DNA from: an uncultured Candidatus Saccharibacteria bacterium
Lineage (GTDB): Bacteria; Patescibacteriota; WWE3; UBA101185; UBA10185
DNA length: 64,000 nucleotides
Reading direction: 5' to 3'
NCBI GenBank assembly: GCA_964387275.1
Contig: CAYLVW010000003.1
Coordinates: 45,796-109,795, forward strand
Part shown: positions 8,003 to 29,473 of the stretch, one piece after another
Layout: each line of letters begins with the position of its first letter
How positions within the stretch are numbered: position 1 is the stretch's first letter
Notes under the pieces: model-generated
Database searches by the model: none
The model's input: only the letters and a program-made list of their open reading frames with translations
What the model was told of the DNA's origin: nothing
Translations under genes and position numbers: made by a program

Positions 8003-8833
8003 TTAGCTTTGTGGCTGCTCAGATGGAGTTGTCTCTAGGGCTTCTGGTATTTCAATTACCTGATCTATTCCTATTCGGTAAAATCTTAACTGCTTAAGCT
8101 TTGCTATGAAATCATTAAAGAGCTTTGATTTTATATCTAAATCCACAGGCTCGTCTGTTACTGCAGTAGAAACAACATATAGGTACGGAGCACTAAGATT
8201 TATTGTAACCCCAAGTTCACCCGTGGATTCAGTTTTATTCGACAATGTGTATCTAAAATCGTCCACCTGTACAAATCTTGCGGAAGACTCAAGAAGGGAA
8301 TTAAAAGCCTTTATCTGGTCGTACGTGCCATCCACAGACAAATTAACAGTAATGTAGGTCTGGGTTTGATCCGAAACATCCGGAGCTCCAGTTTCTTTAG
8401 CCTTTGTACTTGAGGTATCCTGATAGGCATAGCTTAATCTTGTAACCTCCAAACCTGATTCCTTAGCCATAGTATCTATTTGAGTTAGTAACTGAGGTAC
8501 TTTCGCTTCACTGGGTAAAACATCGTCTACAAGGGTAGAGTCTTCAATAATGACTTCTTTATAATCAATAATATTTTTTAAATTAGAAAGCTTTAGGTCA
8601 AGATTTGCTGATAGGGTTTCTTGGGCAGTTATTTTTGCTCTAACTGATGGAATTTCCATATACTTAGGGTAAATGTATAAAACACCAAGTACCAACGTAA
8701 TAACCACACAGGACAATGGAATTAAGAAATTAATAACTACGTTTCTCACAGCTACTAAAGTAGTATTAAGCTTATCAAGCTCTGGGGATTTTTGAACCTG
8801 TTTATCAATGTCAATATTCATGTTTATGGGCAT
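8003..8833 (-). CDS. pilO: Type IV pilus assembly protein PilO-like
   Basis: Single N-terminal TM, coiled-coil and periplasmic-type domain. Last gene of the pilM-pilN-pilO run. Confidence 0.55.
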   Translation of the reverse strand: MPINMNIDIDKQVQKSPELDKLNTTLVAVRNVVINFLIPLSCVVITLVLGVLYIYPKYMEIPSVRAKITAQETLSANLDLKLSNLKNIIDYKEVIIEDSTLVDDVLPSEAKVPQLLTQIDTMAKESGLEVTRLSYAYQDTSSTKAKETGAPDVSDQTQTYITVNLSVDGTYDQIKAFNSLLESSARFVQVDDFRYTLSNKTESTGELGVTINLSAPYLYVVSTAVTDEPVDLDIKSKLFNDFIAKLKQLRFYRIGIDQVIEIPEALETTPSEQPQS

Positions 8834-8834
8834 A

Positions 8835-9416
8835 TTAGTTTTTTATTAACTCCACATCATAATCTACTAAAAGTGAAAAAGAAGCTCTATTCTCTGCGTT
8901 TGATAAGTTTACAGTGTTTAGGGTAACTGTTTTAAAAAGTGCACTATACCCTTGAGTAGCAGTAGGGAAGTCTGTATCTGTAAGATCTTTCATAAACTTA
9001 GCTACAAGTAAGTAATTATCTCCGGACCCAGTTATACTAATCTTACCAGTACTATCTATTGCAAAATCTTCGATCTGAATTCCTGCTGAGGTTCTTTTAT
9101 TAAACTCATCAAGAACTATTGAGTATCTAGTTCTCTTGGAGTAAATATCCTGTAAAGAAGTAAATTTCTTGTATAAATTTCGGGCCGTAATTTCAGTGGA
9201 AGTAAGAGATGCTATCTGCTGCCTGGAAGCATCAATTTTAGCCTCCGCAACCTGCAGTTCTTTAGAGAATTGATCATGTGTATAAAAAAGGTAACCGGTT
9301 ATACCTAAAGCAATCAGTAATATAATTATGGCAAGTATAGAGGTTGTTTTTACAGCCTTCTCTCGTTTTTGTACAACTACTTCTTGATCAGGTATTAGGT
9401 TAATAAATTCAGCCAT
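8835..9416 (-). CDS. pilN: Type IV pilus assembly protein PilN-like
   Basis: 'INLIP' N-terminal motif followed by a TM and coiled coil. Immediately downstream of pilM with a 1-nt junction. Confidence 0.65.
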   Translation of the reverse strand: MAEFINLIPDQEVVVQKREKAVKTTSILAIIILLIALGITGYLFYTHDQFSKELQVAEAKIDASRQQIASLTSTEITARNLYKKFTSLQDIYSKRTRYSIVLDEFNKRTSAGIQIEDFAIDSTGKISITGSGDNYLLVAKFMKDLTDTDFPTATQGYSALFKTVTLNTVNLSNAENRASFSLLVDYDVELIKN

Positions 9417-10447
9417 TATATACCCTTTATAGCAAGACCATAACTTGTTGAGTATATGGGGCCTTGTGCAAATAAATGATCTTTTTGAACCTTAAGTTTT
9501 GGAGAAATTGTAACACCCTTCCAAGGATTTGCTACTTCAACTTCTATATCCAGGTTATTAGCAAAATAAAATAAAATTCCCGGCATTTGGGCAGTGCCTC
9601 CAGAAATAATCATCCTATTTATGGTAACGTTCGGATTATTTGTTGTAAAGAATATTCGGGATCTTTTTATCTCACTAATCATCTGATCGAATAGAGGCTT
9701 GAGTACCTCAGAAACTTTACCCTCAGCTTGACCGGCATCCATACCGTAGGCTTTCTTATACTCCTCAGCCTGTTGATAATCCATTTTTAATTCTTGGGAG
9801 ACTGCTTTTGTAAAAGTGTCACCTCCAATAGATAAATTTCGTGTAAACATAACAAAACCCTTGTATACAATAATTATTAAAGAATAATTAAAACCAATAT
9901 TTAGTATGATAGTGCCATTAGGACTCTGCTCAGTATCCCCTAAAGCTCTTGCAATAGATAAGGTTTCTGGCTCTACAGCAACTGGTGTAAGCTTTGCTCC
10001 TTTTACAATTTCAATATATTTCTCAACAATTGTTTTTTTTGCTGCAACTATCTGAACGTTCATTTTCTCTTTATCAAGCGGGTCAATATCCAGTTTTTGA
10101 TACGAAAGGTTAACTTCTTTCATAGGTAGCGGTATATACTGCTCAGCCTCAAATTTAATGAAATTGGCTAAATCCTTATCATTCATTGTCGGGGTTTTTA
10201 TAACTCTCATAAAAACTTGTTGCTCGGGCAATGAAATTACAACCCTCGGGGAAGAAAAATCAGAATCAACATAAAACTGTTTAAGAGCTTCTGAATAGTT
10301 TTTTATTTCATCTTTGGAATCTGAATCCAAGTTTAGGTGTGGGTTTTCTAAAGAGGCAAACTTATGAAGAGTTGTCTTATCTCGAGATTTCTCAATCTCA
10401 ACTGCTCGAAAGTTGTGTCTTCCTAAGTCTAAACCAATTATGGGCAT
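9416..10447 (-). CDS. pilM: Type IV pilus assembly ATPase-like protein PilM (actin fold)
   Basis: 'IGLDLG' N-terminus and actin-like ASKHA pattern. 343 aa. Confidence 0.8.
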   Translation of the reverse strand: MPIIGLDLGRHNFRAVEIEKSRDKTTLHKFASLENPHLNLDSDSKDEIKNYSEALKQFYVDSDFSSPRVVISLPEQQVFMRVIKTPTMNDKDLANFIKFEAEQYIPLPMKEVNLSYQKLDIDPLDKEKMNVQIVAAKKTIVEKYIEIVKGAKLTPVAVEPETLSIARALGDTEQSPNGTIILNIGFNYSLIIIVYKGFVMFTRNLSIGGDTFTKAVSQELKMDYQQAEEYKKAYGMDAGQAEGKVSEVLKPLFDQMISEIKRSRIFFTTNNPNVTINRMIISGGTAQMPGILFYFANNLDIEVEVANPWKGVTISPKLKVQKDHLFAQGPIYSTSYGLAIKGI

Positions 10448-10470
10448 ACTAAAATATTACATAACAAAAA

Positions 10471-11322
10471 CTAATTAGACAATGGATCAGTGGTAGATCT
10501 TTGTAACAGGGCGTAGTCAAAATCTTGAGGAAGAGCAACGGGTGTCTTTGTTATAGTTAAAGTTTTTTTTGCATCGCCCGAAGTACCTACTATGTCTATT
10601 TGAACCCCTTGCTGAGGTACTGTAAGACCAGTATCTGGAACTATTGTTACTGTCACATCTGAGTAATACGCTTTTAATCTAACTAGTTTTGGGGCTGTTC
10701 TTCCGTCTATCCTAAAGCAGTTTTGATAGGTGTAGAGCGGCGCGGCCGTGGAAAAACCATTAAATGTATTTGTAGAATTAGCTGAATTGTAGGCATAAGT
10801 ATCTGTACCGTAACTGCCGGCCGCGCCGCTAACAAAAATTGCGTACAAAGAAGGGGCTGTAGCACCAGAGCTAGTAGAGTTCCAACAAACCCAAAAATTT
10901 CTGTTATTAGGATAATTGGTCATGTTCACCTCTGAAGAATCAACCCTACCAATTGGCAAAGAATATGTAGCGAGATTACCTAAATATGTAATTATAGCTG
11001 TAGCTGAAGAACTTATACCTCTAGGGTCAGTAACACTCAAGCTACAATTGCCACCACAATTTGTAATATAATTCTCTAGAACCGAGTTATCCTCTGCAAG
11101 TAATCTCTCTGCGAGCGCTTCTGCTACTGCAGTAGCTTTAACATTTGAGTCTCCAGTTGAAAATATTCGCAGAGTTTTGTAAAACTTTTCTGAAACAGAA
11201 ACAACAACCCCTAGGGCTAACATCAATAAAAATACTACAGCCAAAAGGGTCTGACCACGCTCTTCCTTTAAAACTACACTTATCTTTTTAAAAAAACCAT
11301 TTATGATGTAAGTACTTCTCAT
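10471..11322 (-). CDS. PilX_N-like pilus-associated protein (third paralog)
   Basis: N-terminal 'ERGQTLLAVVFLLMLALGVVVSVS' resembles 'SGQALLLVIVSLTVALAVVTSIS' of the two PilX-like cassette genes. Confidence 0.5.
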   Translation of the reverse strand: MRSTYIINGFFKKISVVLKEERGQTLLAVVFLLMLALGVVVSVSEKFYKTLRIFSTGDSNVKATAVAEALAERLLAEDNSVLENYITNCGGNCSLSVTDPRGISSSATAIITYLGNLATYSLPIGRVDSSEVNMTNYPNNRNFWVCWNSTSSGATAPSLYAIFVSGAAGSYGTDTYAYNSANSTNTFNGFSTAAPLYTYQNCFRIDGRTAPKLVRLKAYYSDVTVTIVPDTGLTVPQQGVQIDIVGTSGDAKKTLTITKTPVALPQDFDYALLQRSTTDPLSN

Positions 11323-11334
11323 AACTATACCTGC

Positions 11335-11853
11335 CTAGTAATTACCTCTTGGAACTATAGTATTACTTATTGTGTAGGTTATAGGACTTTGGCCAGCAAG
11401 GGTCGTTTGTGAAAACGTCATATCTAACCTAACACTTTGAATACCATTTACTGTAGTAAGTGTAAAACAATTCGTTCCACAAGTAACAGTAACACTACCC
11501 GCTGAGGAATTATTTTGAGTTAGAGCCACCGTGTTTCTTTGAACCACTCCTGATGTAACAGAATAAGTGACATTAGTGTTACTTGAGTCTACAAAAGTAA
11601 TACTTGTACCACCCCCAGTAACACTACTACCGGCTCTTAGCTCCTTTTCAAGTTTTAAAAAAACGAAGTTTGCTGCTTGCTCAACTTCTGTTGCAATTTG
11701 ATTTTTAGTGTAGGACCTAACTAAAGTCAAAATAACATCAGAAGTAACCCCCACAGAAATTACAAGAAGTGATATTGTTATGACTAACTCCATTAGTGTA
11801 AAACCAGATCTGTTAGCTCTTAATATCTTAGTAAAATTCATTTTCTCCTCCAA
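11335..11853 (-). CDS. Type IV (pre)pilin-like minor pilin
   Basis: Class III signal 'RSGFTLMELVITISLLVI' (G-F-T-L-x-E). Confidence 0.7.
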   Translation of the reverse strand: MEEKMNFTKILRANRSGFTLMELVITISLLVISVGVTSDVILTLVRSYTKNQIATEVEQAANFVFLKLEKELRAGSSVTGGGTSITFVDSSNTNVTYSVTSGVVQRNTVALTQNNSSAGSVTVTCGTNCFTLTTVNGIQSVRLDMTFSQTTLAGQSPITYTISNTIVPRGNY

Positions 11854-12317
11854 TTACTTAAATCGGTGTAAACATATGTGGATCTCTGATTTCCCCCGAT
11901 GTTCCAAGTTACGGTAACGCTTACTCTCACAACCGTATCCGTTAAAGCCACATTACCCCCACTGACATTGGTCACTCTAAAATACCTGGTAACTTGAGGA
12001 CTAGTTCCAGATATAGCCTCTTGACCAGTAGTAACGTTACCAGAACTGTTGTAATAGCAGTTGGAGGTATCACAGTTTTGGATGGTTGTTATAAAACCGC
12101 TCCAACTTGCACTAGAATCTCTGGTAAGTCTTACTCTTTCCAAATATTCATTTGCATACTTCGAAGCTTCAAACATGATTTCTCCCTGAGTTGATGACCT
12201 AAGAGTATAAACGGACAGGGAAACCATTGCAGTAATAACAATAATAGCTACACCTAAAGCTATCACCATCTCAACTAAACCTATACCTTTTTCGTCTTGT
12301 CTAATTAGTTTGTACAT
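11838..12317 (-). CDS. Type IV pilin-like protein (PilV-like, degenerate motif)
   Basis: 'KGIGLVEMVIALGVAIIVITAM' prepilin-like N-terminus with E at +5. Confidence 0.6.
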   Translation of the reverse strand: MYKLIRQDEKGIGLVEMVIALGVAIIVITAMVSLSVYTLRSSTQGEIMFEASKYANEYLERVRLTRDSSASWSGFITTIQNCDTSNCYYNSSGNVTTGQEAISGTSPQVTRYFRVTNVSGGNVALTDTVVRVSVTVTWNIGGNQRSTYVYTDLSNWRRK

Positions 12318-12922
12318 GTAACAGTTGCCGTATTTGTCTGTATGAGACCCGGCGTATTAATAATAACGTTTCTGCAGGTTGCTGAAGTATCTGAGGATCT
12401 TTTAACATTAATACTACAAGTAGAAGTATTACAGTTGATAAAAGCCGTTCCGTTATAAAAAAGCACATCTCCATTTGCAAAACTAAAAAACACACATTTA
12501 TGGGCCGGCCCTGCAATAACTACATCGGAGTTTAACTGTGTACTAGTAGAGGCTGTGGACCAGTTCGCAGCAGAAGTACAAGAACTTGCATTAATAACAC
12601 CCGTAAAAACTCTCCATTGATAAGTATTAGACCCATTACCAAACTTCATACCCCAGTAAGTGGTATTTGTGGTTCTATCAAACTCTGTTCCTGTAAGTGC
12701 TTTATTCTGAACGCTTCTTAAATCACTTTTTACCTGCTCAAGCCCCTGGCTTACATTCTGATTGTTGATGTAAGTATTAAAACTAGGGATCATAGCTGCA
12801 GAGAGAAGGGTAAGTATACCTACAGAAATCATTAACTCTATTAATGTAAAACCTGATTTACTACATATATATCGTGAAATGTATGCAGGGCATTGCATAT
12901 TAAAATGATAGCACAAGACCAC
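12305..12922 (-). CDS. Type IV (pre)pilin-like minor pilin
   Basis: 'KSGFTLIELMISVGILTLL' motif. The true start is probably an internal M. Confidence 0.7.
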   Translation of the reverse strand: MVLCYHFNMQCPAYISRYICSKSGFTLIELMISVGILTLLSAAMIPSFNTYINNQNVSQGLEQVKSDLRSVQNKALTGTEFDRTTNTTYWGMKFGNGSNTYQWRVFTGVINASSCTSAANWSTASTSTQLNSDVVIAGPAHKCVFFSFANGDVLFYNGTAFINCNTSTCSINVKRSSDTSATCRNVIINTPGLIQTNTATVTCTN

Positions 12923-13422
12923 TAATTAATAAGCGTCAAATTGGTGCCTGTTTCAAAAACATCTACGTTATTCCCACCATCTGATACCTCTTTATCCACA
13001 AAGTGCTCTAGATTAGCATTTATTTCGTAGTCAACCCCAAAACAAAAATATGAATATCTATAGGTTAAGTTATTTATTGGATCAATAGGTAACTTTGGGA
13101 TATAGTCAGTCAAATCTTCCACCAACCACCCAAACGTAGATCCAGAAGGCACTGTGTCACTGACTCTAAGTAGAGAGGAATTATCTGGGCAGGTTTTTTC
13201 AACCATTATGTATTGAGATATAGCGGATTCTAAGTAAGCTAGATCAGAAAATCTAACCAAATCCCGAGATTTTGACTTATCTTGTGCGATATTTGAATAC
13301 AAAAGAGCAGAGGTGGCTAAAACCATGATTATACCTACAGAAACAATCAATTCTACTAAGGTAAAACCACTACTGTTTGTAAAATTAGGGGTTTTGAACA
13401 CCATAACAGGAAGTAACTGCAC
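12922..13422 (-). CDS. Type IV (pre)pilin-like minor pilin
   Basis: 'SSGFTLVELIVSVGIIMVLA' motif. Confidence 0.7.
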   Translation of the reverse strand: MQLLPVMVFKTPNFTNSSGFTLVELIVSVGIIMVLATSALLYSNIAQDKSKSRDLVRFSDLAYLESAISQYIMVEKTCPDNSSLLRVSDTVPSGSTFGWLVEDLTDYIPKLPIDPINNLTYRYSYFCFGVDYEINANLEHFVDKEVSDGGNNVDVFETGTNLTLIN

Positions 13423-13894
13423 CGCACGAAGTAATAGTGGCCCAGTTACTTAGGGAATTACATGCAGAAGCTGAGGAAGAATTGGTTTCTGTTCTTGCGG
13501 TTAAAACATATCTTGTAGCAGGGTTTGTTGTTCTATAACCATAATAGTATGTAGTGCCAGTATAGTCGCTGCAAGGATTTGGAGTCCCTGGTACTGAACC
13601 ACCACTAGGATCTGTTGGTAGGGAAGAAGCATAATTTGGAGATAACCCTGCAATTGCAGACGCATTGGACCAGCTAGCAGAAGATGGATAAATTCTATTA
13701 TCTTGAAAATAAAGTTCTAGGGCTGTTTGTAATTTTCTAAGATCAGCTATTCTTTGAGAATCTCTGGCTTTCTGTCTATATCCACCAGAATTTAGTAAGT
13801 TCAAGGCAACTCCAGATAAAATTGCTATGATTAAAACAACAATTAACACCTCTATTAAAGTAAAACCTTTTCTATTTCTGCTTATTAGTTGCAT
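13385..13894 (-). CDS. Type IV pilin / pseudopilin (GspG/PilE-like)
   Basis: 'RKGFTLIEVLIVVLIIAILSGVAL...QKARDSQRIADL' canonical pilin N-terminal helix. Confidence 0.75.
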   Translation of the reverse strand: MQLISRNRKGFTLIEVLIVVLIIAILSGVALNLLNSGGYRQKARDSQRIADLRKLQTALELYFQDNRIYPSSASWSNASAIAGLSPNYASSLPTDPSGGSVPGTPNPCSDYTGTTYYYGYRTTNPATRYVLTARTETNSSSASACNSLSNWATITSCGAVTSCYGVQNP

Positions 13895-14460
13895 GTTACT
13901 CCATCCAAATTAGTACATCCCGCAGCACTAAATCCAGTCCCCGCACTAGAGCATTGATTAGTGCAACTCCTCATAACTTTTCCTTTACAGGAAGAGGAAG
14001 TGACAGCATCCGGATTCATATATTTATAATAAGTTGTTGTTACTGATGCCATAGGAACACTTAAACAAAAATTAGAAGAATTACTATAATACCTGTACTC
14101 CTGTCCAGATACATTAGTACTAGGCCAAGAAACAATAAATCGCCCTATTTCTGCAAGTTCAGATGAATTTGTATTAGTAAAAGGGTTGTAATCGCTATCA
14201 GAGTCTGTAGCAGGTCTGCCGCTAGAGGCAAAAAAAGACTCAAATCCCTGTGCTAACTTACTCATAGTCGAAGCCCTTACGGAATCAGTGGCAATATCTC
14301 TTTGCCTATTAACATTTATAGTTGAGAGCAAAATCCCAGACAACACACCAACAAGTGAGATAACAATTAGTAATTCGATTAGCGTAAAACCTGAATTTTT
14401 ATACATAAATTCTTTTAAAAAGTGGTTATCTCGTGCACTAGATAACCACTTGAAAAACAA
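13885..14460 (-). CDS. Type IV (pre)pilin-like minor pilin
   Basis: 'KNSGFTLIELLIVISLVGVLSG' motif. Confidence 0.7.
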   Translation of the reverse strand: MFFKWLSSARDNHFLKEFMYKNSGFTLIELLIVISLVGVLSGILLSTINVNRQRDIATDSVRASTMSKLAQGFESFFASSGRPATDSDSDYNPFTNTNSSELAEIGRFIVSWPSTNVSGQEYRYYSNSSNFCLSVPMASVTTTYYKYMNPDAVTSSSCKGKVMRSCTNQCSSAGTGFSAAGCTNLDGVTCN

Positions 14461-14466
14461 TCTACA

Positions 14467-15063
14467 TTACAAGGCTGTACAGTTCTGAGCAGCTGTATCA
14501 CAAAGATACATTCTTGAATCCGCACTGCTGTAAACGAATACGTTCGTGGAACCCCAAGCTCTAGCCATCAATCTAAAAGTCGTAGTAGTGTTTGTGAAAG
14601 CACAAGCACCACTTTGGTCAGCACCTGTAGTAGCACTACCGCAATATCTGTAATAACACTGGTTTGCACCAGTACCACCCCAGCCGTTAGCACCACAAGC
14701 ATTAGTACCACCAACAGCTAAAGGTTGGCTTGATAGAGCGAACTGACAGTCAGCATCTGTTGCGGTACCACAGGTGGCACCGTTTGCTGTAACTCCAGTA
14801 AGTCCAGATAATACTTCGGTTTCATTAGGAATTCTTCCGTAAGCAGAAACAAATCCAGCAGTAGCTAAAGCTAGTTTGTTCATGGAAGCTCTGACGTTTG
14901 CATCTCTAGCTCTATTTTGCTGAGTTGTAGGATCTATAACGGCAATTAAAACTCCCGCTAAAATACCAATAATTACGATAACTATTAAAAGCTCGATAAG
15001 GGTAAAACCTGCTGTATCAGGGACCAATTTTACTTTGGTTTTGTGTAACAATTTGTTAAGCAT
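14467..15063 (-). CDS. pilA: Probable major type IV pilin (PilA-like)
   Basis: 'TAGFTLIELLIVIVIIGILAGVLIAV...NRARDANVRASMNKLA'. Gly/Thr/Ala-rich C-terminus with 4 Cys. Locally elevated GC suggests high expression. Own 170-bp upstream region with a TTGACA-like element. Confidence 0.7.
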   Translation of the reverse strand: MLNKLLHKTKVKLVPDTAGFTLIELLIVIVIIGILAGVLIAVIDPTTQQNRARDANVRASMNKLALATAGFVSAYGRIPNETEVLSGLTGVTANGATCGTATDADCQFALSSQPLAVGGTNACGANGWGGTGANQCYYRYCGSATTGADQSGACAFTNTTTTFRLMARAWGSTNVFVYSSADSRMYLCDTAAQNCTAL

Positions 15064-15233
15064 TGTTACACCCCCTCTCTAAAATAAGCAAACTATTGAA
15101 TTTTTTGCTTAGTAATTTGACTAACATTTCTGGGCAGATGAATGGAAATTAGTTCAAATTCATCTTTCAAAAGTATGAACTTATAAAAGTTGTGTGTCAA
15201 TGAAATAATAATTAAACTATACGTAAAATCTAA

Positions 15234-16157: not shown

Positions 16158-16160
16158 AAA

Positions 16161-19494: not shown

Positions 19495-19627
19495 CTATAA
19501 TACTCGTATAAAAAGGAACGCGTAAAGAGTTTATTTTGCAACAATAAAGATTTTGACAGCAACCTTAAGAGAAAGTGAAAGCTTTACCCACTGGAAAAAG
19601 TTACTAATTCTTACCTTAAGGCAGGGG

Positions 19628-20542: not shown

Positions 20543-23301
20543 CTAATATTATTTACAAATACTCCGGTGTTATTTGAATTTGAGGAAGCTCTTTCAGCTG
20601 CAGTCATAGTTGATAAATATTGGGTGGAGTACTGCACAACAGTAGAGGGTATAGTATTTGTATTTATTCTGTTCCTTTTAAAGTGAACTCTGCTGTTAGA
20701 TACCAAAAACCCCGAGACATTAAGTGTAGTATCAGGAGTTGGACTACCCTGAGTTTCAACTATCACTTGATTACTACCAACAGCCATAAACCCACCCTGC
20801 ATATTCTGGGTAACACCGTCCCCACCAACCACAGGTGCAAAGATAGCATCACGTAAAAACACAAACACCACACGCTCGTTTGCACTAGAAGAAAGAATGT
20901 TTTTTGTGATATTTAGGCTTGAGGAATCACCAACATAAATAGTAACCACAGAATTAGCGTTATTGATATTGTAGGTAACAGTTCCAGACGAACCACCTGC
21001 CCAAGAATTAAATATTGCAGATGGAGCAAAATAACATCTATTTGAATCCAAATTACTAAAAGTAGAAACATTGGATATTGTGTTAGCAGAACAGGCAGAA
21101 GGCACTGAAGTTGTATAGGAGGCTGGCCATAAATTCATGGCTGCAGAATCAGATGCGTCATAAAAACCACCCGTTGATTCATATAAAGTAGAACCGGACG
21201 GAGACACGGAAGCATTAGAATGGAAATACCCACTGCCACCCACACTATCTTTGTCTGCAAGTACAAATCTTTCAAAGGATGGATTAACAATATTTGGAAG
21301 GGCCATGTTCATGCCACCATTTGAAAAAACGTCCCCTTCATAAACAGTAATCCAAGAAGTTGGTGGGGAAGCAATAAATCCAAGTCTCCATGTGCTAACA
21401 CTTGCGTTAATCGTTTGGGAAGGGGATAAAGTAATGCAGTTTCCTGCTGAGATTGTATGCTCATTACCATTGCCTGAAATACCATCTAAGTCGACACAAC
21501 TTAAGGCATAGTTATTACCTGCATTAGGGGATAATGTAGCACATACTTGATTTGCATTGGTACCACTCGTAATATTAGGAACCGACCAATTTGTCCCAGC
21601 TATACTACCTGTAAAAGTTCCATTAACTGAAACGTTTCCTGAGTTGCCATTTGTTGCACCACTGGTATCAGCTACACAAGCAGTGGTTGTTACAAATGTT
21701 GTTCCAGAAACTGTTCTGGAAGGAGGATTTAGGGTCACAGTCACAACATCGTTAGCAGTCGCAAAATTACTTCCGGCATTTCTATCGCATCTCTGATAGG
21801 ATAAAAGACTACTTGCTGCCCAACTCCTTCCTTGACCATCGCCATTACACACTCCCACATTATCACTTACTTTAACAAGTACCTGATATGTACCAGGTAC
21901 CGAGGTTGCTGTATTCCATGTAGCGTTATTTAAAGTACAAGAAGGAGACCCTGCAGCACAACTAGCTGTACCAAAATCAACAAAACCTGTAGCTAGGGAA
22001 TATCTGGTAGCTGTTACAAAGGCAGCATAGTTTGGTGCATATGTGTCGTCAAGGTTTGAATCAGTTCCATTGGCATTCAATTGAATTACATCCCCCACTT
22101 GAGCTGTAATTGTTCTTGTAGATTGAGCAACACCATTTACCCGAACTGCGTTTGTATCAATCCAGCCTCTAGGTAACACATTTAGGTAAATATTGTATCT
22201 GTCATAAGAGGTGCCATTTCTATCACATCTGGTCCAAGGTTCCTGAAACGGACTGGTCCAAGCAGTGTAGGCGTTACCTGAGCACTGGTAACCACTTCTA
22301 TCGTACACATTTACAACTGCCTGCCATCTCGATCCGGAAATTAAGTCTCCCATAATTGGAGACCACTGATTAGTTGAGACGCTACAACTTGCACTATTAG
22401 CAGGGCAAGCTGGTACACCCCATCCAACCCAGCCCCCGGTGTAATCTGAACAATTGCCGTTAGTAGAATTACAGGCCCTTCTAAAAGCCCATACGTTTGC
22501 TAATCCGTTGTAAGTAGTACCTGGGTGAGGATCAATACCGCTTACTGTTAATTGAATCGGTGCTTCAGCAGAATTTATGTCATCTCTTATGGTAATAAAA
22601 GTGTCTCTTATATCACCACCTGTGGGATCTGCGGGATTATAAATCATACCAGTAGGTGGAGTAGCTTTATGCAAATTACCTATAACACTACCGCAGTACG
22701 ATCCCCCAGCATATGCTGAGGCATTCATATAAGCGTCTACAAAAATCCTTGTATCTGGTTGGTGTGTTGAATGCAGTTCAAGTTGATCAGTAACTCTCCA
22801 AACCCCACCCCCAACATCAGTGGCAGGAAGTATTCTTTCGTCATCTTTATTATTTAATGGTGACCAGATATGAAACCAAACACTGGATGCGTTAGACACA
22901 CCATTTGCTTGGACAGTAAAGTTTCCTGCATCCTGGTTAAAATTTACCTGAGGCGCTGTGACACTAGTACAAGAAGGTCCGGCAGCGCCAAGATCTACAG
23001 TATACTTTCCCGAGGTACCATAGGGACAAGACTCATCACAAATAGCCCCATAGAAAGGATGTGAAGCAACACTACAATGAGAACCGGAGCCATATGTAGA
23101 GGAGTACCAACAAGAAACAGCGTTACAAGAGTCACATCTATAGGATCTTCCTGCGTTTGTCCATGTATCGCCAGGATTCCTACCTTGGCAAGTATCACAA
23201 GCAAATGAAACTCTCGGTACAACCACATTTACTAAAACAAGTGCAACTACTATAAAAAGATAACTAAAGTGCTGCCTATTCATTGAAAAATACTCCAACA
23301 A
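20524..23301 (-). CDS. Giant secreted Cys-rich protein, cassette B (candidate pilus-tip adhesin)
   Basis: 925 aa. 'CDTCQGRNPGDTWTNAGRSYRCDSCNAVSC'. Conserved blocks 'VWFHIWSPLNNKDDERIL' and 'GGGVWRVTDQLELH' shared with cassette A. Confidence 0.6.
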   Translation of the reverse strand: MLEYFSMNRQHFSYLFIVVALVLVNVVVPRVSFACDTCQGRNPGDTWTNAGRSYRCDSCNAVSCWYSSTYGSGSHCSVASHPFYGAICDESCPYGTSGKYTVDLGAAGPSCTSVTAPQVNFNQDAGNFTVQANGVSNASSVWFHIWSPLNNKDDERILPATDVGGGVWRVTDQLELHSTHQPDTRIFVDAYMNASAYAGGSYCGSVIGNLHKATPPTGMIYNPADPTGGDIRDTFITIRDDINSAEAPIQLTVSGIDPHPGTTYNGLANVWAFRRACNSTNGNCSDYTGGWVGWGVPACPANSASCSVSTNQWSPIMGDLISGSRWQAVVNVYDRSGYQCSGNAYTAWTSPFQEPWTRCDRNGTSYDRYNIYLNVLPRGWIDTNAVRVNGVAQSTRTITAQVGDVIQLNANGTDSNLDDTYAPNYAAFVTATRYSLATGFVDFGTASCAAGSPSCTLNNATWNTATSVPGTYQVLVKVSDNVGVCNGDGQGRSWAASSLLSYQRCDRNAGSNFATANDVVTVTLNPPSRTVSGTTFVTTTACVADTSGATNGNSGNVSVNGTFTGSIAGTNWSVPNITSGTNANQVCATLSPNAGNNYALSCVDLDGISGNGNEHTISAGNCITLSPSQTINASVSTWRLGFIASPPTSWITVYEGDVFSNGGMNMALPNIVNPSFERFVLADKDSVGGSGYFHSNASVSPSGSTLYESTGGFYDASDSAAMNLWPASYTTSVPSACSANTISNVSTFSNLDSNRCYFAPSAIFNSWAGGSSGTVTYNINNANSVVTIYVGDSSSLNITKNILSSSANERVVFVFLRDAIFAPVVGGDGVTQNMQGGFMAVGSNQVIVETQGSPTPDTTLNVSGFLVSNSRVHFKRNRINTNTIPSTVVQYSTQYLSTMTAAERASSNSNNTGVFVNNISWYYGN

Positions 23302-23884
23302 ATTTAACTACTTTCTTGAGTTGATAAGATTGATCGTCATAATATTTTATTGAAACTTGCTTATTTAGAGCTGTTGCTATATCAGACGCAAATACTTTCG
23401 TTAAAACAGGAACTTCGGAATTAGTATTGGCAGACAAAACAAGAACTCTATTGGAAGAAGTGCTAGTTTCAAATGAAACTCTAAGCAGGTAATCAGAAAA
23501 ACTATATGTTCTAAGGGTATATAAGTCACCACTCTCAAGTTTTATATCCATAGTGCCGCTAGTAGAATCTACACCAGTGATTATACCGGTAACCAAAGTT
23601 CCTGCGTCAAGAAGGGAATAAATATCTGTAAGATCATCCTTACGTAAAGAAGGAGAGGTAGAGTTACCGGATTCAAAAGAATTTATAAACTCTCTATCAG
23701 CACCCTCCCCATCAAAAACACCATCTTTAGAATCAGAACCAAAATTATACCCATTAATCTGCACCGGAATAAGACCAAAGTATATAGAACCACCCAAAAG
23801 AGCAACAAAAATGAAAACAAATAATATCACTATCCTAAAACCAATGAAACCTTTAACATTTTCGGCAGAATTTACGTGTTTCAT
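23276..23884 (-). CDS. Small single-TM protein, cassette B
   Basis: 'NVKGFIGFRIVILFVFIFVALLGGSIYF'. Paralog of 18889-19494. Confidence 0.5.
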   Translation of the reverse strand: MKHVNSAENVKGFIGFRIVILFVFIFVALLGGSIYFGLIPVQINGYNFGSDSKDGVFDGEGADREFINSFESGNSTSPSLRKDDLTDIYSLLDAGTLVTGIITGVDSTSGTMDIKLESGDLYTLRTYSFSDYLLRVSFETSTSSNRVLVLSANTNSEVPVLTKVFASDIATALNKQVSIKYYDDQSYQLKKVVKFVGVFFNE

Positions 23885-24786
23885 ATATTCATATAAATTT
23901 TGACTAATTCAACACCAAAAAGCAAGGCTGTAATAGAACCTAAAACTAAAAAGGGTCCAAACGGAATGGTATCTTTTATGGATTTTCTCTTCAAAACAAT
24001 TAATACAAGGCTGTATAAGGCCCCATAGACAAAACCTAGGAAAATAGCAAGAATTGCATATGGAAATCCATTTACAAGTCCTATCAAAAATCCAAGTTTA
24101 AGATCTCCACCACCCATTCCACGACCCTTAGTAAGGATTATTAGTGCTAGAAAGAATAACGAGATAAGAAACGCAGTCAAAAATACTCCTCCCAAATCTA
24201 AGACACTTTCTTTTATCACATCATTAAAATACCCAACTTTAAGCAGGTATTGACCAAAATCATTGTCTGATAGCGCACTATAGATACTAACAAGCCTAAA
24301 ACTAAAATTAGAAATATAATACAAAATAGAAACCACTACTCCTGTATAAATAGCTCCATTTGGAATAATTGTGTATTTAGCATCAGCCAATACAATAACA
24401 ATAAAAATACAAAGTATAAGAAGCAGGTAGGCAAAATTTAGATAAGCGAATGGGGTAGTTACCTTGGTAATAGAAGTTATGACACCAATCAATACAAAAG
24501 CCACACCAGTCAGAGATTCAGAAATTGGGTAGGACATGGATAGCGGGTTGCTACAGTACCTACACCTCCCGCGCAACAAATAAAATGAAACCAAGGGAAG
24601 TAAGTCTCTAGGCGCAAGTGTAGTGTCACACTTGTCACATTTGGACCTACCTCTTACAAATGATTCATTTCTATAGCTTCTGTCAGCAATCACATTCAAA
24701 AAAGAACCTACAAACAAGCCTACAATAAATAAGAACGTATATACAGAAACATCTATAACTAAAGGTAGGGAAGAGTAATCAACCAT
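23881..24786 (-). CDS. pilD: Prepilin peptidase PilD (A24 family)
   Basis: N-terminal Cys tetrad 'CDKCDTTL...CRYC'. Polytopic membrane protein. Confidence 0.85.
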   Translation of the reverse strand: MVDYSSLPLVIDVSVYTFLFIVGLFVGSFLNVIADRSYRNESFVRGRSKCDKCDTTLAPRDLLPLVSFYLLRGRCRYCSNPLSMSYPISESLTGVAFVLIGVITSITKVTTPFAYLNFAYLLLILCIFIVIVLADAKYTIIPNGAIYTGVVVSILYYISNFSFRLVSIYSALSDNDFGQYLLKVGYFNDVIKESVLDLGGVFLTAFLISLFFLALIILTKGRGMGGGDLKLGFLIGLVNGFPYAILAIFLGFVYGALYSLVLIVLKRKSIKDTIPFGPFLVLGSITALLFGVELVKIYMNI

Positions 24787-24788
24787 AA

Positions 24789-25319
24789 CTATAATATTAT
24801 TAAAGAGGTGCCAACCTCATAAAATGAATTATCATCTCCACCATCTGTTGTCATCTTTGAAGCATTATCGGGGGATTCTAAAACACCGTTAATTTCAAAA
24901 TTATTTCCATCTGACCCATAAGTGTAAACGTATGTTCCAGAGTTTGTAGGATCAAGAGGTAACACCTGTATGAAATTAGCCAGACCAGCTTTGCCAGAAG
25001 GAACCACAAATTTCACATAGCCTGAACCATCTATACCAATACCACCTAAACTACTACTACAATCAGTACAGCTGGAAGTACTGCTTAATGTAAGCTGTCC
25101 GTCTGCTTGAGCAAGTAGTAGAGCTTTTACTAGGGTGTTCATATCTTCGGTACGCCTTGCATCACGACCTTTGGCCAAAAAATCCCCAGGTTTAAGAACC
25201 GTCAAAAGCAACCCACTCATAATAGAAACAACAGCAATAACAATCATTAACTCTATTAAGGTAAAACCATTTCTGATTTTAAAGTAAGACTTAAAGTAGG
25301 TAGGTAGGTTCATACACAT
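24789..25319 (-). CDS. Type IV (pre)pilin-like protein
   Basis: 'RNGFTLIELMIVIAVVSIMSGLLL...AKGRDARRTEDM'. Confidence 0.7.
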   Translation of the reverse strand: MCMNLPTYFKSYFKIRNGFTLIELMIVIAVVSIMSGLLLTVLKPGDFLAKGRDARRTEDMNTLVKALLLAQADGQLTLSSTSSCTDCSSSLGGIGIDGSGYVKFVVPSGKAGLANFIQVLPLDPTNSGTYVYTYGSDGNNFEINGVLESPDNASKMTTDGGDDNSFYEVGTSLIIL

Positions 25320-25320
25320 A

Positions 25321-26529
25321 TTATTGTATAGAACTGGTGATCTTGTATATAGGGGTAATAATTGAAACGATCAAAACACCAACCATAGCTCCAAGCATAA
25401 TTAAGATCAAAGGTTCTAAGGCAGCGGATAACCCCTTAACTGCGTTGTCTGTTTCACCTTCAAAATAATCAGCTACTCTAGTAAGAACTTGATCAATTTG
25501 ACCGGTTTCTTCTCCAACAGATACCATTTGACCAAGTAAAGGAGGGTAAACCTTAGTGTTACTCTTAAAATAATCGGATAAAGAATTACCCTTTTCAACG
25601 GTTTTGGCAGCAACAAGGGTGGCATCACGAAGCTGTTTATTTTGTATAACTTTTCCAACGATATTTAAAGCTTCCACAATTGGTATAGCTGAAGATATTA
25701 ATAACCCAAGAGTTCTGGTAAATTGTGTAATATCCTTTTGCTTATTAATTTTCCCAAAAACCGGTAATCTAAAAGCTACAAAGGAGGCAAAATTCTGACC
25801 GTCTTCAGTACCTAAGTAGTACCTTCCAAAGAAAAAAGCTAATACAACTATACCTATTGCTATATACCAGTAGTTAATCATGAAGTCAGAAATCCCAATC
25901 ATGATTTGGGTTTCTAGGGGAAGTTGAACATTTAGGCTTTTATACATGGACGCAAGCTTGGGAACAACAAGTATCATAAGCAGAACAAAAACACCAACCA
26001 TAGCCAAAAATACAATGGCAGGATAAATCATAGCAGCCTTAAACTTTGCGTCTAGCTCACGTTCTGCTTCCATATTGGTGGCAAGTCTTTTCAAAATTTC
26101 ATCTAACCTACCGGAGGACTCACCAGCTTTAACAAGAGCTTGATAAGTTTGCCCAAAAACTTTTGGGTGACGGGCGAATGCTTCGGATAGGGAAGTACCA
26201 CCTTCCACAGACCTCAAACAATCCAAAATAATACCCTTGAATGTCTTGTTCTGAGTTTGATCTGCCAACACCTCTAAAGCCCTTGATAAAGGAAGTCCAG
26301 CTGAAATCATAGTTGAAAATTGTCTGGTAAAGGCAACGATCTCATTTATGGGAACACCCATTATGCTAAAAACATCATCCAAAAATGAGGAACGTTTTTC
26401 ATTGATTGATATAACAAAAAGCCCTTGGTTCTTAAGCAAGGTTACCGCAATAGACTCGGATCTTGCATCAACAGTACCTGACCTCTTACCTCCTGAAAAA
26501 TCTGTAGCAATATAAGTATATAAAGGCAT
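25321..26529 (-). CDS. pilC: Type IV pilus platform protein PilC (GspF family)
   Basis: Two GspF repeats and 3 TM. 402 aa. Confidence 0.85.
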   Translation of the reverse strand: MPLYTYIATDFSGGKRSGTVDARSESIAVTLLKNQGLFVISINEKRSSFLDDVFSIMGVPINEIVAFTRQFSTMISAGLPLSRALEVLADQTQNKTFKGIILDCLRSVEGGTSLSEAFARHPKVFGQTYQALVKAGESSGRLDEILKRLATNMEAERELDAKFKAAMIYPAIVFLAMVGVFVLLMILVVPKLASMYKSLNVQLPLETQIMIGISDFMINYWYIAIGIVVLAFFFGRYYLGTEDGQNFASFVAFRLPVFGKINKQKDITQFTRTLGLLISSAIPIVEALNIVGKVIQNKQLRDATLVAAKTVEKGNSLSDYFKSNTKVYPPLLGQMVSVGEETGQIDQVLTRVADYFEGETDNAVKGLSAALEPLILIMLGAMVGVLIVSIITPIYKITSSIQ

Positions 26530-26530
26530 A

Positions 26531-27595
26531 TTATCTTCCTTTTAGAAGCCTCCTAAGTTCGTCCGGTCTAAGTGTCCATTTCATAGCATCGGAAACATCT
26601 ACATTTCCTGAATCCACTAAAGTGGCCAAGCTTCTTTCTAGTGTAACCATACCTTGATTAGCTGCAGTTTGAATAGCATTATCAAGTAAATGAGTTTTTC
26701 CTTCTCTAATTAGATTTCTAACAGCATCTGTCGCTAGCATTATCTCAAGAGCTGGTATAACGCCGCCCTTAGTAGAAGGTATAAGTCTCTGAGATACTAT
26801 AACTTCAAGCACCTGAGATAACTGGACTCGGATCTGATTTTGTTTTGCTTCCGGAAAAGAACTAATAATTCTTTCGACAGACTGAGAAGCAGAATTTGTA
26901 TGTAATGTACCAAACACCAGGTGACCTGTTTCAGCAATCTCTAGAGTTGCAGACATAGTAGCCTCATCCCTCATTTCTCCAATCATAACGACATTTGGAT
27001 CTTGCCTTAGTACTGATTTTAAAGCCACATCCCAGGAGTGGCTATCTATAAACATTTCTCTTTGATCAATAAGTGATTTCTTATTTACGAATGTGTATTC
27101 AATAGGGTCCTCAATAGATACTATGTGCTCGGCTCTATTAGTATTGATGTGATCTATCATGGATGCAATAGTTGTAGATTTACCATGACCAGTAGGACCA
27201 ACTACCAACACCAACCCCTGCTTCATCTCACAAAACTTCTCAACAATTGGAGGTAAACTCAAATCTTTTAGGGTTGGAATTTTCATAGATATAAGCCTCA
27301 TTGCAACAGAAACATAACCCCTTTGGTAAAACGCGTTGACCCTAAATCTTGCCTTAGTACCAAGTGCAACAGAAAAATCTAACTCTTTGTTTACATCAAG
27401 TATGTCTAGCTGCTCTCGCTCAAGAATTTGGGAAAGAAAAAAATCCATGTCCTCTATGGACATAGGATCATAATCAGAAAGTAACTGAAGCTTGGTATTA
27501 ATCCTAACTGTAGGCACCTGACCAATAGCTAAGTGCAAATCTGAGGCATTAAGCTTAAGAACTTGTTCTAATAATTGTGTTACGTTTAATTTCAT
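26531..27595 (-). CDS. pilT: Twitching motility / retraction ATPase PilT
   Basis: 'GPTGHGKSTT' Walker A. 354 aa, PilT length and motifs. Confidence 0.85.
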   Translation of the reverse strand: MKLNVTQLLEQVLKLNASDLHLAIGQVPTVRINTKLQLLSDYDPMSIEDMDFFLSQILEREQLDILDVNKELDFSVALGTKARFRVNAFYQRGYVSVAMRLISMKIPTLKDLSLPPIVEKFCEMKQGLVLVVGPTGHGKSTTIASMIDHINTNRAEHIVSIEDPIEYTFVNKKSLIDQREMFIDSHSWDVALKSVLRQDPNVVMIGEMRDEATMSATLEIAETGHLVFGTLHTNSASQSVERIISSFPEAKQNQIRVQLSQVLEVIVSQRLIPSTKGGVIPALEIMLATDAVRNLIREGKTHLLDNAIQTAANQGMVTLERSLATLVDSGNVDVSDAMKWTLRPDELRRLLKGR

Positions 27596-27709
27596 GGCAG
27601 TTACTAGATTTGCTAAACATATACTTTGAAAACAAATCTATTGTACTTTCTTACCCTTTCTTAAAAGGATTTATCTATAGGAAGTGGTGCTCCCAACAAA
27701 TAAATCACC

Positions 27710-29473
27710 TTAAGACTTAGCTACCCTCATAACTTCTTCCAAAGTTGTAATACCTTCTAAAACTCTCAAATACCCATCCTGCATTAAGCTTAACATACCT
27801 TCTTCTTGGGCAACACTATCAAGCTTTGTAGCAGAGCTGTTATCAAGAACCAAGTGGCCAATCTGATCTGACATTACTAGTAACTCATAAATACCAAGCC
27901 TACCTTTGTATCCAGTATTGTTACATTTTTCACAACCCTTTCCTTTTTTTACCTTGATTTTGCCGTCTTTATACTTTTTCACAATTCTTGCAATATCAGG
28001 ATCCTTAGTCATAAGAACTTTACTTTTTTCAATGGAAACTAATACTCTTTTAATGCTTTCCTCAATTTCTTCAGGCACATCCTGCTCCTCACCACAATTT
28101 GGACAAACTTTCCTGACTAGTCTCTGGGCTAAAACAGCATTAAGTGTAGATGCCAATAAGAAATTTTCTACTCCCATATCAAGAAGCCTGGGTAAGGCGC
28201 CTGCGGCAGAATTAGTGTGAAGGGTAGATAAAACTAAGTGCCCAGTTAGAGCAGCTTGAACAGCCAAGTTAGCAGTCTCACCATCTCTAATCTCTCCTAC
28301 CATTATTATGTTTGGGTCTTGCCTTAAAAATGATCTAAGGGCAGAAGCAAAAGTAAGTCCTGCTTGAGGGTTAATTTGCACTTGATTAACCCCGGGAACT
28401 CTAATTTCTACAGGATCCTCAGCGGTGACTGTATTAACCCTAACTGTATTTAGCTTGGATAGGGCAGAGGCTAATGTAACAGTTTTACCTGAACCTGTAG
28501 GACCTGTTACTAAAACCATCCCAGTTGGTTTTAAAATTGCTTCTTCTAATCTTCGTAGAGTAAGCCCCCGTAATCCTAAATCTTTAAATGTAAAAACAGC
28601 TCCTTCTTCTTTCAAAAGCCTAATAACTACTTTCTCACCGTAGATAATTGGAAGAGTAGAAACCCTTAAATCAGTTTGAGTATTACCTACCTGAACTTTA
28701 AATCTACCGTCCTGGGGAACACGCTTCTCATCTATCTTCATTTTTGCGAGAATTTTGATTCTAGCTACTACAGATTCTTGCATTTCTTTCGGTAATACTC
28801 TCTTTTCCTCTAAAATTCCGTCAATTCTGTATCTTAGTCTGGTACCTTTTTCTGAAGGCTCTAGGTGTACATCGGATGCACCAGTTTTAACAGCTGTTTC
28901 TAAAATCATTCCAACAATTCTCGCAATCGGAGCATCCCTTATTGTAGCGTCAGTAAGTTCACCAGAATTTTCTTCAAGTTTTAAGGTTGTCTGGTTAATC
29001 TCTTCAAGAGCTGCACTAATTTCCTCGCCAATTGCCTTACCTTTTTCCTCTTCAAGTACCCGTTCTACATCTTTAGGAGTTGTGATATAGGGAACTACTT
29101 TGTAGCCAGTTTTTCTTTCAAGAAATTCAATGGTCTGAAGATCCATAGGATCTACCATTGCGAGAGATAAGCGATCTCCATCAAGGTAGAAGGGAACTAC
29201 ATTGTATTTTTTTGCAACATTAAGTGGAACTAAATCCAAAAGAGCTGGATCAGGTTTTACCGTAGCAAGGTCAACAAATGATATCCCATACATTTCACCA
29301 TAAACTTTTACAAAGTCATCATTACTAACGTAACCTCGTTCTTTTATAATCTGGACGGTATCTTTTCCCGTGTTGGAACGCTCAAATTTTATTGCGGAGA
29401 GCTGATCAGCAGTAAGTAAATGCTTGTCGTAAAGTACATCTTCAATTGATTTTGAATTGTCACTAAAAATCAT
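27710..29473 (-). CDS. pilB: Type IV pilus assembly ATPase PilB (GspE family)
   Basis: 'GPTGSGKT' Walker A. C-terminal tetracysteine 'CPNCGEE...CEKCNNTGYKGR'. The track ORF extends to 29539; start set at the MIFSDNSK ATG. Confidence 0.85.
   Translation of the reverse strand: MIFSDNSKSIEDVLYDKHLLTADQLSAIKFERSNTGKDTVQIIKERGYVSNDDFVKVYGEMYGISFVDLATVKPDPALLDLVPLNVAKKYNVVPFYLDGDRLSLAMVDPMDLQTIEFLERKTGYKVVPYITTPKDVERVLEEEKGKAIGEEISAALEEINQTTLKLEENSGELTDATIRDAPIARIVGMILETAVKTGASDVHLEPSEKGTRLRYRIDGILEEKRVLPKEMQESVVARIKILAKMKIDEKRVPQDGRFKVQVGNTQTDLRVSTLPIIYGEKVVIRLLKEEGAVFTFKDLGLRGLTLRRLEEAILKPTGMVLVTGPTGSGKTVTLASALSKLNTVRVNTVTAEDPVEIRVPGVNQVQINPQAGLTFASALRSFLRQDPNIIMVGEIRDGETANLAVQAALTGHLVLSTLHTNSAAGALPRLLDMGVENFLLASTLNAVLAQRLVRKVCPNCGEEQDVPEEIEESIKRVLVSIEKSKVLMTKDPDIARIVKKYKDGKIKVKKGKGCEKCNNTGYKGRLGIYELLVMSDQIGHLVLDNSSATKLDSVAQEEGMLSLMQDGYLRVLEGITTLEEVMRVAKS

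Follow-up and report, generated by a model that had tools for sequence, protein, structure and literature searches.

A duplicated three-gene cassette in the secretin-less type IV pilus locus of a WWE3-type Patescibacterium, with a possible role at the pilus tip

The subject of this study is a type IV pilus (T4P) locus without a secretin gene, which lies at positions 8003-29473, on the minus strand, of a 64-kb stretch of Patescibacterial DNA (contig CAYLVW010000003.1); this stretch is called the window, and all positions are those of the window. The locus holds 22 open reading frames (ORFs), all on the minus strand and all intact, with no frameshifts or internal stops, and Pfam and NCBIfam models find PilB, PilT, PilC, PilD, PilM, PilN and PilO among their products. 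An earlier reading made from the letters alone (hereafter the sequence-only reading) had described a complete, unsplit T4P locus, and this is borne out: the gene set is complete and constrained, with a retraction ATPase, no secretin nearby and a Patescibacterial host. The same reading had reported many gene overlaps of 1-4 nucleotides, which holds in part. The junctions are tight and three overlaps are of this size (1, 4 and 4 nucleotides), but most of the eight are longer (8, 10, 13, 14 and 20 nucleotides); the other junctions are six small gaps of 1-3 nucleotides, three spacers of 12-23 nucleotides and four larger gaps of 60, 114, 133 and 170 nucleotides. As such, the pilus locus is ordinary for this candidate-phylum group of ultrasmall bacteria, and its only unusual part is a duplication. 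Between pilD and the candidate major pilin gene, 8.65 kb (15234-23884), or 40% of the block, are taken up by a cassette of three genes, which we call A-B-C and which is present twice in tandem, in diverged copies. Two genes of 913 and 919 amino acids and two of about 200 amino acids, which the sequence-only reading had left undescribed, form this cassette pair together with two of the genes that it had called “PilX_N-like”.

Selection could be estimated gene by gene by comparison with a colinear locus (L002/L003; JGI 3300005324 contig Ga0070403_11625; Logan SRR5165160), which matches window positions 10871-33272 at 85.8% nucleotide identity. Most of its pilus genes are 94-100% identical to those of the window in protein, at a dS of about 0.8-1.1, and dN/dS lies between 0.007 and 0.15 for the 18 genes of the locus within its reach (PilB through pilin 8). 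In cassette 1, A1 (23276-23884) encodes a bitopic membrane protein of 202 amino acids with the N-terminus KGFIGFRIVILFVF and no Pfam match; it overlaps pilD by 4 nucleotides and B1 by 8, and its dN/dS is 0.15. B1 (20524-23283; dN/dS 0.022) encodes a secreted, Cys-rich, modular protein of 919 amino acids, whose C-terminal domain is predicted to be a beta-solenoid like that of ComZ and the ice-binding proteins (IBP). C1 (19628-20521; dN/dS 0.019) encodes a PilX_N-type pilin-like protein of 297 amino acids with the site SG/QALLFVIV (a slash marks the presumed cleavage site here and below), which lacks Glu5. Cassette 2 has the same composition. A2 (18889-19494; 201 amino acids; dN/dS 0.10), like A1 a bitopic membrane protein with an N-terminal membrane anchor, is homologous to A1 (32% identity) and overlaps B2 by 14 nucleotides; B2 (16161-18902; 913 amino acids; dN/dS 0.026) is 47% identical to B1 over its full length; and C2 (15234-16157; 307 amino acids; dN/dS 0.044), again a PilX_N-type pilin-like protein, is 53% identical to C1.

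Could the second cassette be a redundant, decaying duplicate, or even an assembly artefact, without a function of its own? It repeats the same three-gene order in tandem, and most related loci hold one cassette; one of them, L089, has the same flanks as the window's locus and corresponds to it with a single cassette. However, the two copies are only 32-53% identical in protein, which makes them too diverged for an artefact of assembly collapse or expansion, and the same two cassettes stand intact and in the same order in L002, a lineage 14% different in DNA, with strong purifying selection on the B and C genes of both. Since L002 carries both cassettes, the duplication predates the split of the two lineages. 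Another locus, L090 (Ga0233437_1000078), has at 2834-10609 two tandem B-family genes (818 and 678 amino acids), each after a bitopic ORF; a C-family gene comes next after the first of them but not after the second. The two B genes of L090 are independent of those in the window, so cassette multiplication appears to be recurrent in the clade. We regard a decaying or artefactual second cassette as very improbable.

The three genes that the sequence-only reading had named PilX_N-like, C1, C2 and X3 (10471-11322, directly before pilM), do form one family, because they are mutually homologous; C1 and X3, for example, are 26% identical over their full length (E 2e-15). Eight of 24 C-family members from related loci match PilX_N (best 2e-7), and the family consensus reads GQxLL...RAxxAAEAGxE. 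The A proteins are less easily placed. A1, A2 and their close orthologs begin with K-G-[FY]-I-G-[FY]-R-I followed by a hydrophobic stretch, which resembles a prepilin site with Arg in place of Glu5. We considered A as a pilin and rejected this, as the KGFIGFR motif is confined to the close clade and carries Arg at +5, and the distant positional equivalents do not have it. A bitopic ORF of about 180-320 amino acids precedes B in most loci, with recognisable homology to A only in the close clade.

The B proteins begin with a signal peptide of the Sec type, at the end of which stands an invariant Ala-Cys (A/C), 24 of their 26 cysteines are invariant in six sequences, and no LPXTG wall-sorting motif or other anchor was found in them. 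Close relatives are rare: only four were found among 5.8 billion proteins, all encoded directly after pilB-pilT-pilC-pilin-pilD-A, and a search of 185,579 GTDB species genomes with the close-family alignment gave none. An exhaustive HMMER profile search gave 147 matches, of which about 100 (cluster representatives) share only the last 290-420 residues, always at the C-terminus. These more distant relatives have a signal peptide and a Cys-rich start, followed by varied middle modules (GBS_Bsp-like, CBM60, Ig/FN3) and then the shared domain. A word-index protein search with a 27-sequence profile of the domain returned no matches, against the roughly 100 from exhaustive HMMER, which reflects a limit of sensitivity for divergent and compositionally biased families. 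Identity between B1 and B2 is 74-78% at residues 101-200, a region with a weak GBS_Bsp-like match, and 30-56% elsewhere. For the shared C-terminal domain there is neither a Pfam model nor a match among PDB sequences, and a PDB profile search with the C family likewise gave chance-level matches only. In the source annotation, the B family and the cassette appear only as “hypothetical protein”, and we found no paper that joins Patescibacteria, solenoids and pili; as far as our searches went, the B family is thus without a Pfam model, a functional annotation or a published description.

An AlphaFold2 model of the B C-terminal domain (mean predicted local distance difference test, pLDDT, 77) shows a triangular beta-solenoid fold like that of ice-binding proteins. 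In fold comparisons, the top match of this model is ComZ of Thermus thermophilus (12.4, with 212 residues aligned), followed by ice-binding proteins of the DUF3494 type (11.1-11.5), with two-partner-secretion adhesins at about 8, tapirins at 7.2, and lyases and tailspikes at 7.2 or below. ComZ, a tip pilin associated with competence, carries a triangular solenoid of the ice-binding type as an insertion in its GspK-like pilin domain, and it binds a neighbouring GspI-like pilin as well as DNA (PMC6561018). Minor pilins named PilX in cyanobacteria are built in the same way and, according to a proposal, plug the tip instead of PilY1 (bioRxiv 10.64898/2026.02.12.705559). At the extreme C-terminus of B, the motif G[LV]FV..[IV].W is conserved, yet disordered in the monomer model; such a tail would fit a partner-binding strand, a fit that proves nothing by itself. 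Three other identities for B were considered and set aside. As a member of the DUF3494 ice-binding family it has the likeness in fold only, with no Pfam match at E <= 0.01 and no PDB profile match. As a PilY1-type protein it would be expected among Neisseria_PilC matches, of which Pfam gave none in B1, B2 and 10 relatives, and its predicted fold is a solenoid with no propeller. Finally, an origin from phage tail fibres is not indicated, the viral fold library giving only non-significant DUF3494 matches.

The placement of B and C genes relative to each other and to the pilus genes is what would tie the cassette to the machine. Genes with the B domain lie in or beside a pilus locus in L006, L007, L012, L013, L018, L020 and L078, and a C-family gene follows B directly in 16 of the 19 B genes with enough downstream sequence. 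To avoid anchoring on pilus genes, metagenome contigs were also scanned by a B-domain motif, which yielded seven loci; each of them has a C-family gene whose start lies -18 to +5 nucleotides from the end of B, and five of the seven lie inside pilus loci. The smallest B genes are seen in L018 (15632-17540) and L020 (15627-17467), where a minimal B of 308-334 amino acids consists of a signal peptide and the solenoid, in the order pilD-B-C-pilins-pilM.

We propose that C is an alternative, Glu5-less cap subunit of the PilX type, and that B is a Sec-exported, disulfide-rich protein whose ComZ-like C-terminal solenoid would dock on C or on the tip complex. The variable N-terminal modules of B (GBS_Bsp-like here; CBM60 or Ig/FN3 in relatives) would then bind a host or surface ligand, making B an adhesin, and A may be a membrane-anchored assembly factor. 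B and C together would amount to the “pilin plus solenoid” tip plug of ComZ and cyanobacterial PilX, split into two polypeptides, and the two cassettes would provide two alternative tips on one machine. On balance, we consider it probable that the block is a functional chromosomal locus for a type IVa-like pilus of a WWE3-type Patescibacterium, a cell without an outer membrane, with B and C as its tip module. For the more specific idea, based on the predicted fold, that B and C are a split ComZ-like tip adhesin and that two cassettes mean two alternative tips, the chances seem to us roughly even. A broader generalization can be offered only tentatively, and we would sooner bet against it than for it: that the WWE3-type tip is a two-gene module of a PilX-type cap and a separately secreted B, in which the solenoid plugs the cap and the N-terminal modules decide the host, so that two modules mean two specificities.

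Several observations weigh against this proposal. None of C1, C2 and X3 matches the Pfam model PilX_N (PF14341), even at E 10. B carries a Sec-type signal peptide and not a pilin N-terminus, and sequence-level kinship of B to ComZ, DUF3494 or PilY1 was not found, either by Pfam at E <= 0.01 on B1, B2 and 10 relatives or by PDB profile. The full-length model of B1, built from six sequences, has a pLDDT of 46 and is unusable. Foldseek ranks ComZ and the ice-binding proteins first in both the PDB and the viral library, though at non-significant values (E >= 0.04), and beta-solenoids recur in unrelated adhesins and lyases. In addition, the B genes of L007 and L078 and the second B of L090 have no adjacent C, and the B-C pair of L085 has no pilus genes in the contig DNA examined. 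The hypothesis that links B to C and to the pilus has as its basis the adjacency of genes and a single predicted fold. In an alternative, B would be a surface protein or enzyme independent of the pilus, such as a beta-helix polysaccharide lyase or depolymerase or a wall adhesin, which merely shares the operon, and C would tether B to the membrane through its N-terminal helix and never enter the filament. The pair of L085 and the recurrence of solenoids in lyases are compatible with it; on the other side stand the five of seven B-anchored loci inside pilus loci, the low fold scores of lyases relative to ComZ, and the lack of a wall-sorting motif in B. We judge this alternative unlikely, and the tip proposal the better of the two.

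The likeness to ComZ also suggests a different function for the pilus, namely that it serves chiefly in DNA uptake (competence), with B as a DNA receptor at the tip, as ComZ is in Thermus. In its favor, the top fold match of B is a protein that binds DNA, and bacteria of the candidate phyla radiation (CPR) lack nucleotide synthesis and have T4P that the literature has linked to competence (PMC6744442, PMC3812714, PMC11623550). However, the DNA-binding lysines of ComZ sit between its pilin domain and its solenoid, an arrangement absent from B, while B bears wall- or glycan-type modules (GBS_Bsp-like here, CBM60 in relatives), and neither comEC nor dprA is in the window. A role chiefly in DNA uptake, to which only the ComZ analogy points, appears quite improbable, even more so than a pilus-independent B.

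Comparison with known tips helps to place the two-part tip that we favor. Both ComZ (PDB 6QVI) and cyanobacterial PilX have a solenoid encoded among minor pilin genes and tied to the GspK/PilX cap position, in lineages without PilY1. They differ from the present case in that the solenoid lies inside one pilin polypeptide, whereas here it would be, going by a predicted model, the C-terminal domain of the non-pilin B, with the cap-type pilin C encoded by the adjacent gene. The PilY1/PilC tip adhesins of Pseudomonas and Neisseria are similar to B in being large, non-pilin, Sec-exported proteins encoded beside the core minor pilins, with a conserved C-terminal and a variable N-terminal part, but their C-terminal part is a beta-propeller (Pfam Neisseria_PilC) where that of B is predicted to be a solenoid. 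Myxococcus has three alternative clusters of PilY1 and minor pilins; alternative tip sets are possible on one machine. The T4P loci of Gram-positive bacteria of the type IVa kind (Clostridia, Streptococcus sanguinis) are likewise secretin-less pilB-pilT-pilC-pilD-pilMNO loci in which adhesion occurs via bulky minor-pilin modules. In S. sanguinis, vWA and lectin modules are reportedly grafted onto true pilins; the module there is on the pilin, and here it is on a separate protein, B. The tapirins of Caldicellulosiruptor differ, with a structural match much weaker than that of ComZ or IBP and no sequence relation, and to our knowledge they have no paired PilX-type gene.

The closest studied counterpart of the whole locus is T4P-1 of Nanosynbacter lyticus TM7x, which, like CPR loci in general, has PilB, PilT, PilC, PilD, PilM/N/O and several pilins but no PilQ or PilP, in an ultrasmall Patescibacterium (PMC11623550; PMC6744442). 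In this Saccharibacterium, a locus of the same composition is essential, bears PilT and drives twitching, and large minor “PilX” proteins without a canonical PilD signal have been proposed as its tip adhesins (PMC11623550). The TM7x proteins PilX1 and PilX2 differ from the arrangement described here, in that their adhesin domain (a jelly-roll or beta-propeller) is on the pilin-like protein itself, whereas in the window a protein of its own, the Sec-secreted B, makes up the large module beside a small PilX-type C, and the cassette is duplicated. TM7x locus 1 has 5 pilins, and the window's locus 8 plus 3 of the PilX_N type.

Why would a tip module of this kind matter? Cultivated Patescibacteria live attached to other microbes, and T4P are the best candidate for finding and holding a host; in Saccharibacteria, both twitching and the binding of the host have been shown to depend on pili. 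We know of no host-specificity determinant for nearly the whole Patescibacteria radiation. The locus supplies a concrete candidate for host recognition, in the form of secreted proteins that are large, modular and rich in disulfides, associated with a cap gene of the PilX type and linked structurally to the solenoid tip pilins of Thermus and cyanobacteria, and the two diverged copies, kept under selection in two lineages, make for a natural comparison. If the link is true, the variable part of a single gene could reveal the host range of WWE3-like bacteria, which would be testable by recombinant proteins without cultivation; a cell with the two diverged modules would have two specificities, for hosts or surfaces, on one retractile machine; and the ComZ/PilX solenoid tip could exist as a split, exchangeable cassette.

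With respect to the pilins, seven genes with a G/FTL[IVM]E leader pass the N_methyl model, and an eighth (11838-12317), with G/IGLVE, is found only below threshold, which agrees with the earlier count of at least eight class-III pilin genes. The earlier description of this complement as unusually large is not supported, given that the close relatives L086, L087, L089 and L090, whose loci are complete or almost so, also have 7-9 class-III pilins and two PilX_N-type genes, as do L006, L018 and L020. Pilin 1 (24789-25319; RNG/FTLIELMIV; N_methyl 2e-7, with a TIGR02532 match) occupies the slot between pilC and pilD. This slot holds a pilin in nearly all of the Patescibacteria loci examined (about 60), typically with KG/FTLVELLVVIA. 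Pilin 1 could build a second type of filament on the same machine as pilin 2, the candidate major pilin described below. After pilin 2 come pilin 3 (13885-14406; 173 amino acids, with the start taken from the L002 gene call; NSG/FTLIELLIV; N_methyl 9e-8), pilin 4 (13385-13894; 169 amino acids; RKG/FTLIEVLIV; 2e-9) and pilin 5 (12922-13404; 160 amino acids; SSG/FTLVELIV; 3e-6).

The last four genes before pilM keep the same order in all of these relatives: a GspH/FimU-like pilin, a G/IG..E pilin similar to PilV/GspI, a third pilin, and a Glu5-less PilX_N-type protein. In the window these are pilin 6 (12305-12898; 197 amino acids; KSG/FTLIELMI; N_methyl 1e-6), with weak matches of the GspH, ComGD and PpdD type, all under the NCBIfam cutoffs; pilin 7 (11838-12317; 159 amino acids; EKG/IGLVEMVIAL; N_methyl E 0.029, Tt1218-like 0.047), with a PilV match (TIGR02523, 3.5e-4) that is again under the cutoff; pilin 8 (11335-11841; 168 amino acids; RSG/FTLMELVI; N_methyl 5e-5), at the GspJ/PilW position and with weak matches of the ComGF and PpdC type; and X3 (283 amino acids; ERG/QTLLAVV), at the GspK/PilX position. 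The G/IG[LI][IV]E motif of pilin 7 is kept in L006, L086, L087, L089 and L090, and in 16 of 22 related loci the gene next to pilM on this side belongs to the C family. Pilins 6-8 and X3 thus follow the canonical order of core minor pilins, with which the weak, sub-cutoff NCBIfam matches agree, and from their placement at the GspH-I-J-K (FimU-PilV-PilW-PilX) positions they probably prime assembly.

Pilin 2 (14467-15063; 198 amino acids; TAG/FTLIELLIV; N_methyl 3e-7, with GspG and PilA-type N-terminal matches under the cutoffs) is most likely the major subunit, to judge from its protein conservation, low dS, spacers, promoter-like site and hairpin. Its protein is 100% identical to the L002 ortholog, with a dS of 0.30 compared with 0.6-1.2 in neighbouring genes, and among the pilins it has the highest content of Gly, Ala, Ser and Thr (0.42). 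The largest spacer of the locus (170 nucleotides) precedes it and is 94.7% identical to L002, compared with about 85% for the locus, while the 60-nucleotide spacer 3' of it is 98.3% identical; another spacer is at 66%. The region upstream (15064-15200) holds a promoter-like site, TTGACA-17-CATACT (15200-15172), a conserved leader and a strong Shine-Dalgarno sequence (GAGAGGGGGTG). Directly after the gene (14410-14451) lies a terminator-like hairpin with a 12-bp stem and a U-run (minimum free energy -24.3 kcal/mol, z -4.9, with 0 of 200 shuffles as stable). The hairpin was missed by the consensus terminator scan and found by folding. The consensus scans for sigma-70 promoters and terminators, from which the promoter-like site of pilin 2 comes, are at chance level overall (46 found, 45.7 expected), and the fold of the conserved leader is not significant (z 0.08).

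The genes for the core machinery are well recognized by family models. PilB, the assembly ATPase (27710-29473; 587 amino acids), matches Pfam T2SSE (2e-131) and MshEN (2e-21), shows the Walker A motif GPTGSGKT and CxxC...CxxC, and has a dN/dS of 0.008 against L002; its best NCBIfam model is type_IV_pilB (TIGR02538) at 588 bits, under the equivalog cutoff of 676. The first ATG of its ORF is at 29539, and relatives call the 587-residue form, which agrees with the end coordinate of the sequence-only reading. PilT (26531-27595; 354 amino acids; dN/dS 0.007) scores 424 bits with TIGR01420 (pilT_fam; cutoff 319) and carries AVRNLIRE, so the earlier identification of a retraction ATPase stands. PilC, the platform protein (25321-26529; 402 amino acids), has two T2SSF domains (2e-62). 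PilD, the prepilin peptidase and N-methyltransferase (23881-24786; 301 amino acids), matches A24_N_bact (5e-27) and Peptidase_A24 (27.1 bits, cutoff 26.5), with the CxxC...CxxC of a Cys-rich N-terminal domain and both Asp motifs, D(AKYTIIP) and GGGD, visible. PilM (9416-10447; 343 amino acids) matches PilM_2 (1e-52), PilN (8835-9416; 193 amino acids) matches Pfam PilN (4e-5; 24.0 bits, cutoff 22.8), and PilO (8003-8833; 276 amino acids) matches Pfam PilO (1e-9; 39.1 bits, cutoff 22). The Pfam gathering scores are passed by PilC, PilD, PilM, PilN and PilO, with a narrow margin for Peptidase_A24 and PilN. From what is known of these families, the pilins would be exported by Sec, after which PilD would cleave and methylate the eight prepilins, PilB with PilC and PilM/N/O would polymerise the filament straight through the wall without a secretin, and PilT would retract it.

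No match to Pfam Secretin or PilP was found in any ORF of at least 270 amino acids in the 64-kb window, in keeping with the earlier statement that pilQ and pilP are missing, and gene content together with placement in the Patescibacteria supports its reading of a secretin-less T4P of a cell without an outer membrane. This reading appears right and is already known in kind, since co-localised PilB/T/C/M/N/O/D without PilQ has been reported across CPR genomes, for which a non-Gram-negative envelope is also described in the literature (PMC6744442; PMC3812714), and T4P genes, pilT among them, have been described from a WWE3 genome as well (PMC3812714). A scan with PilB across one genome per GTDB species gave 508 relatives, the best of which (71-76% identity) are metagenome-assembled genomes (MAGs) of candidate division WWE3 and others that bear the label Saccharibacteria or Patescibacteria; with GyrB, identity to this set is 74-79%. 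Among 80 PilB-anchored loci, nearly all that are long enough to show it have the order pilB-pilT-pilC-(pilin)-pilD. The gyrB-holB/pilB arrangement of one flank is common to WWE3 loci such as L006, L012 and L013, and the pilO/trmD..rnc arrangement of the other flank to L089 and L090. The best matches of PilB and GyrB and the synteny of the flanks point to a WWE3-type Patescibacterium as the source of the window. Many MAGs (L026, L032, L034-L036 and others) are titled “uncultured Gammaproteobacteria” or “Pseudomonadales” despite a PilB, gene order and flanks typical of Patescibacteria, and these labels look unreliable.

Outside the block, the rest of the window is mostly housekeeping (recG, rnc, trmD, a holB-like gene, gyrB, gyrA, IMPDH, ruvC, efp, dnaB and hisS). 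One release-factor gene (62155-63123, plus strand; PCRF and RF-1 domains) encodes only 322 amino acids and does not cover the start of the PCRF profile (about 35 positions), and no programmed frameshift was seen upstream of it in 61990-62230. Among genes without Pfam matches, an ORF at 47616-50186 (minus strand) encodes a coupling protein of the VirD4/TrwB type with 856 amino acids (TrwB_AAD_bind 2e-9; weak T4SS-DNA_transf and TraG-D_C). Near it lie unannotated ORFs (43990-44814 and 46611-47468) and a tyrosine recombinase (41525-42550), with ruvC and yebC in between. A monoderm-type type IV secretion or conjugation system has reportedly been described recently for Patescibacteria, and the coupling protein may be part of such a system or of an integrated element.

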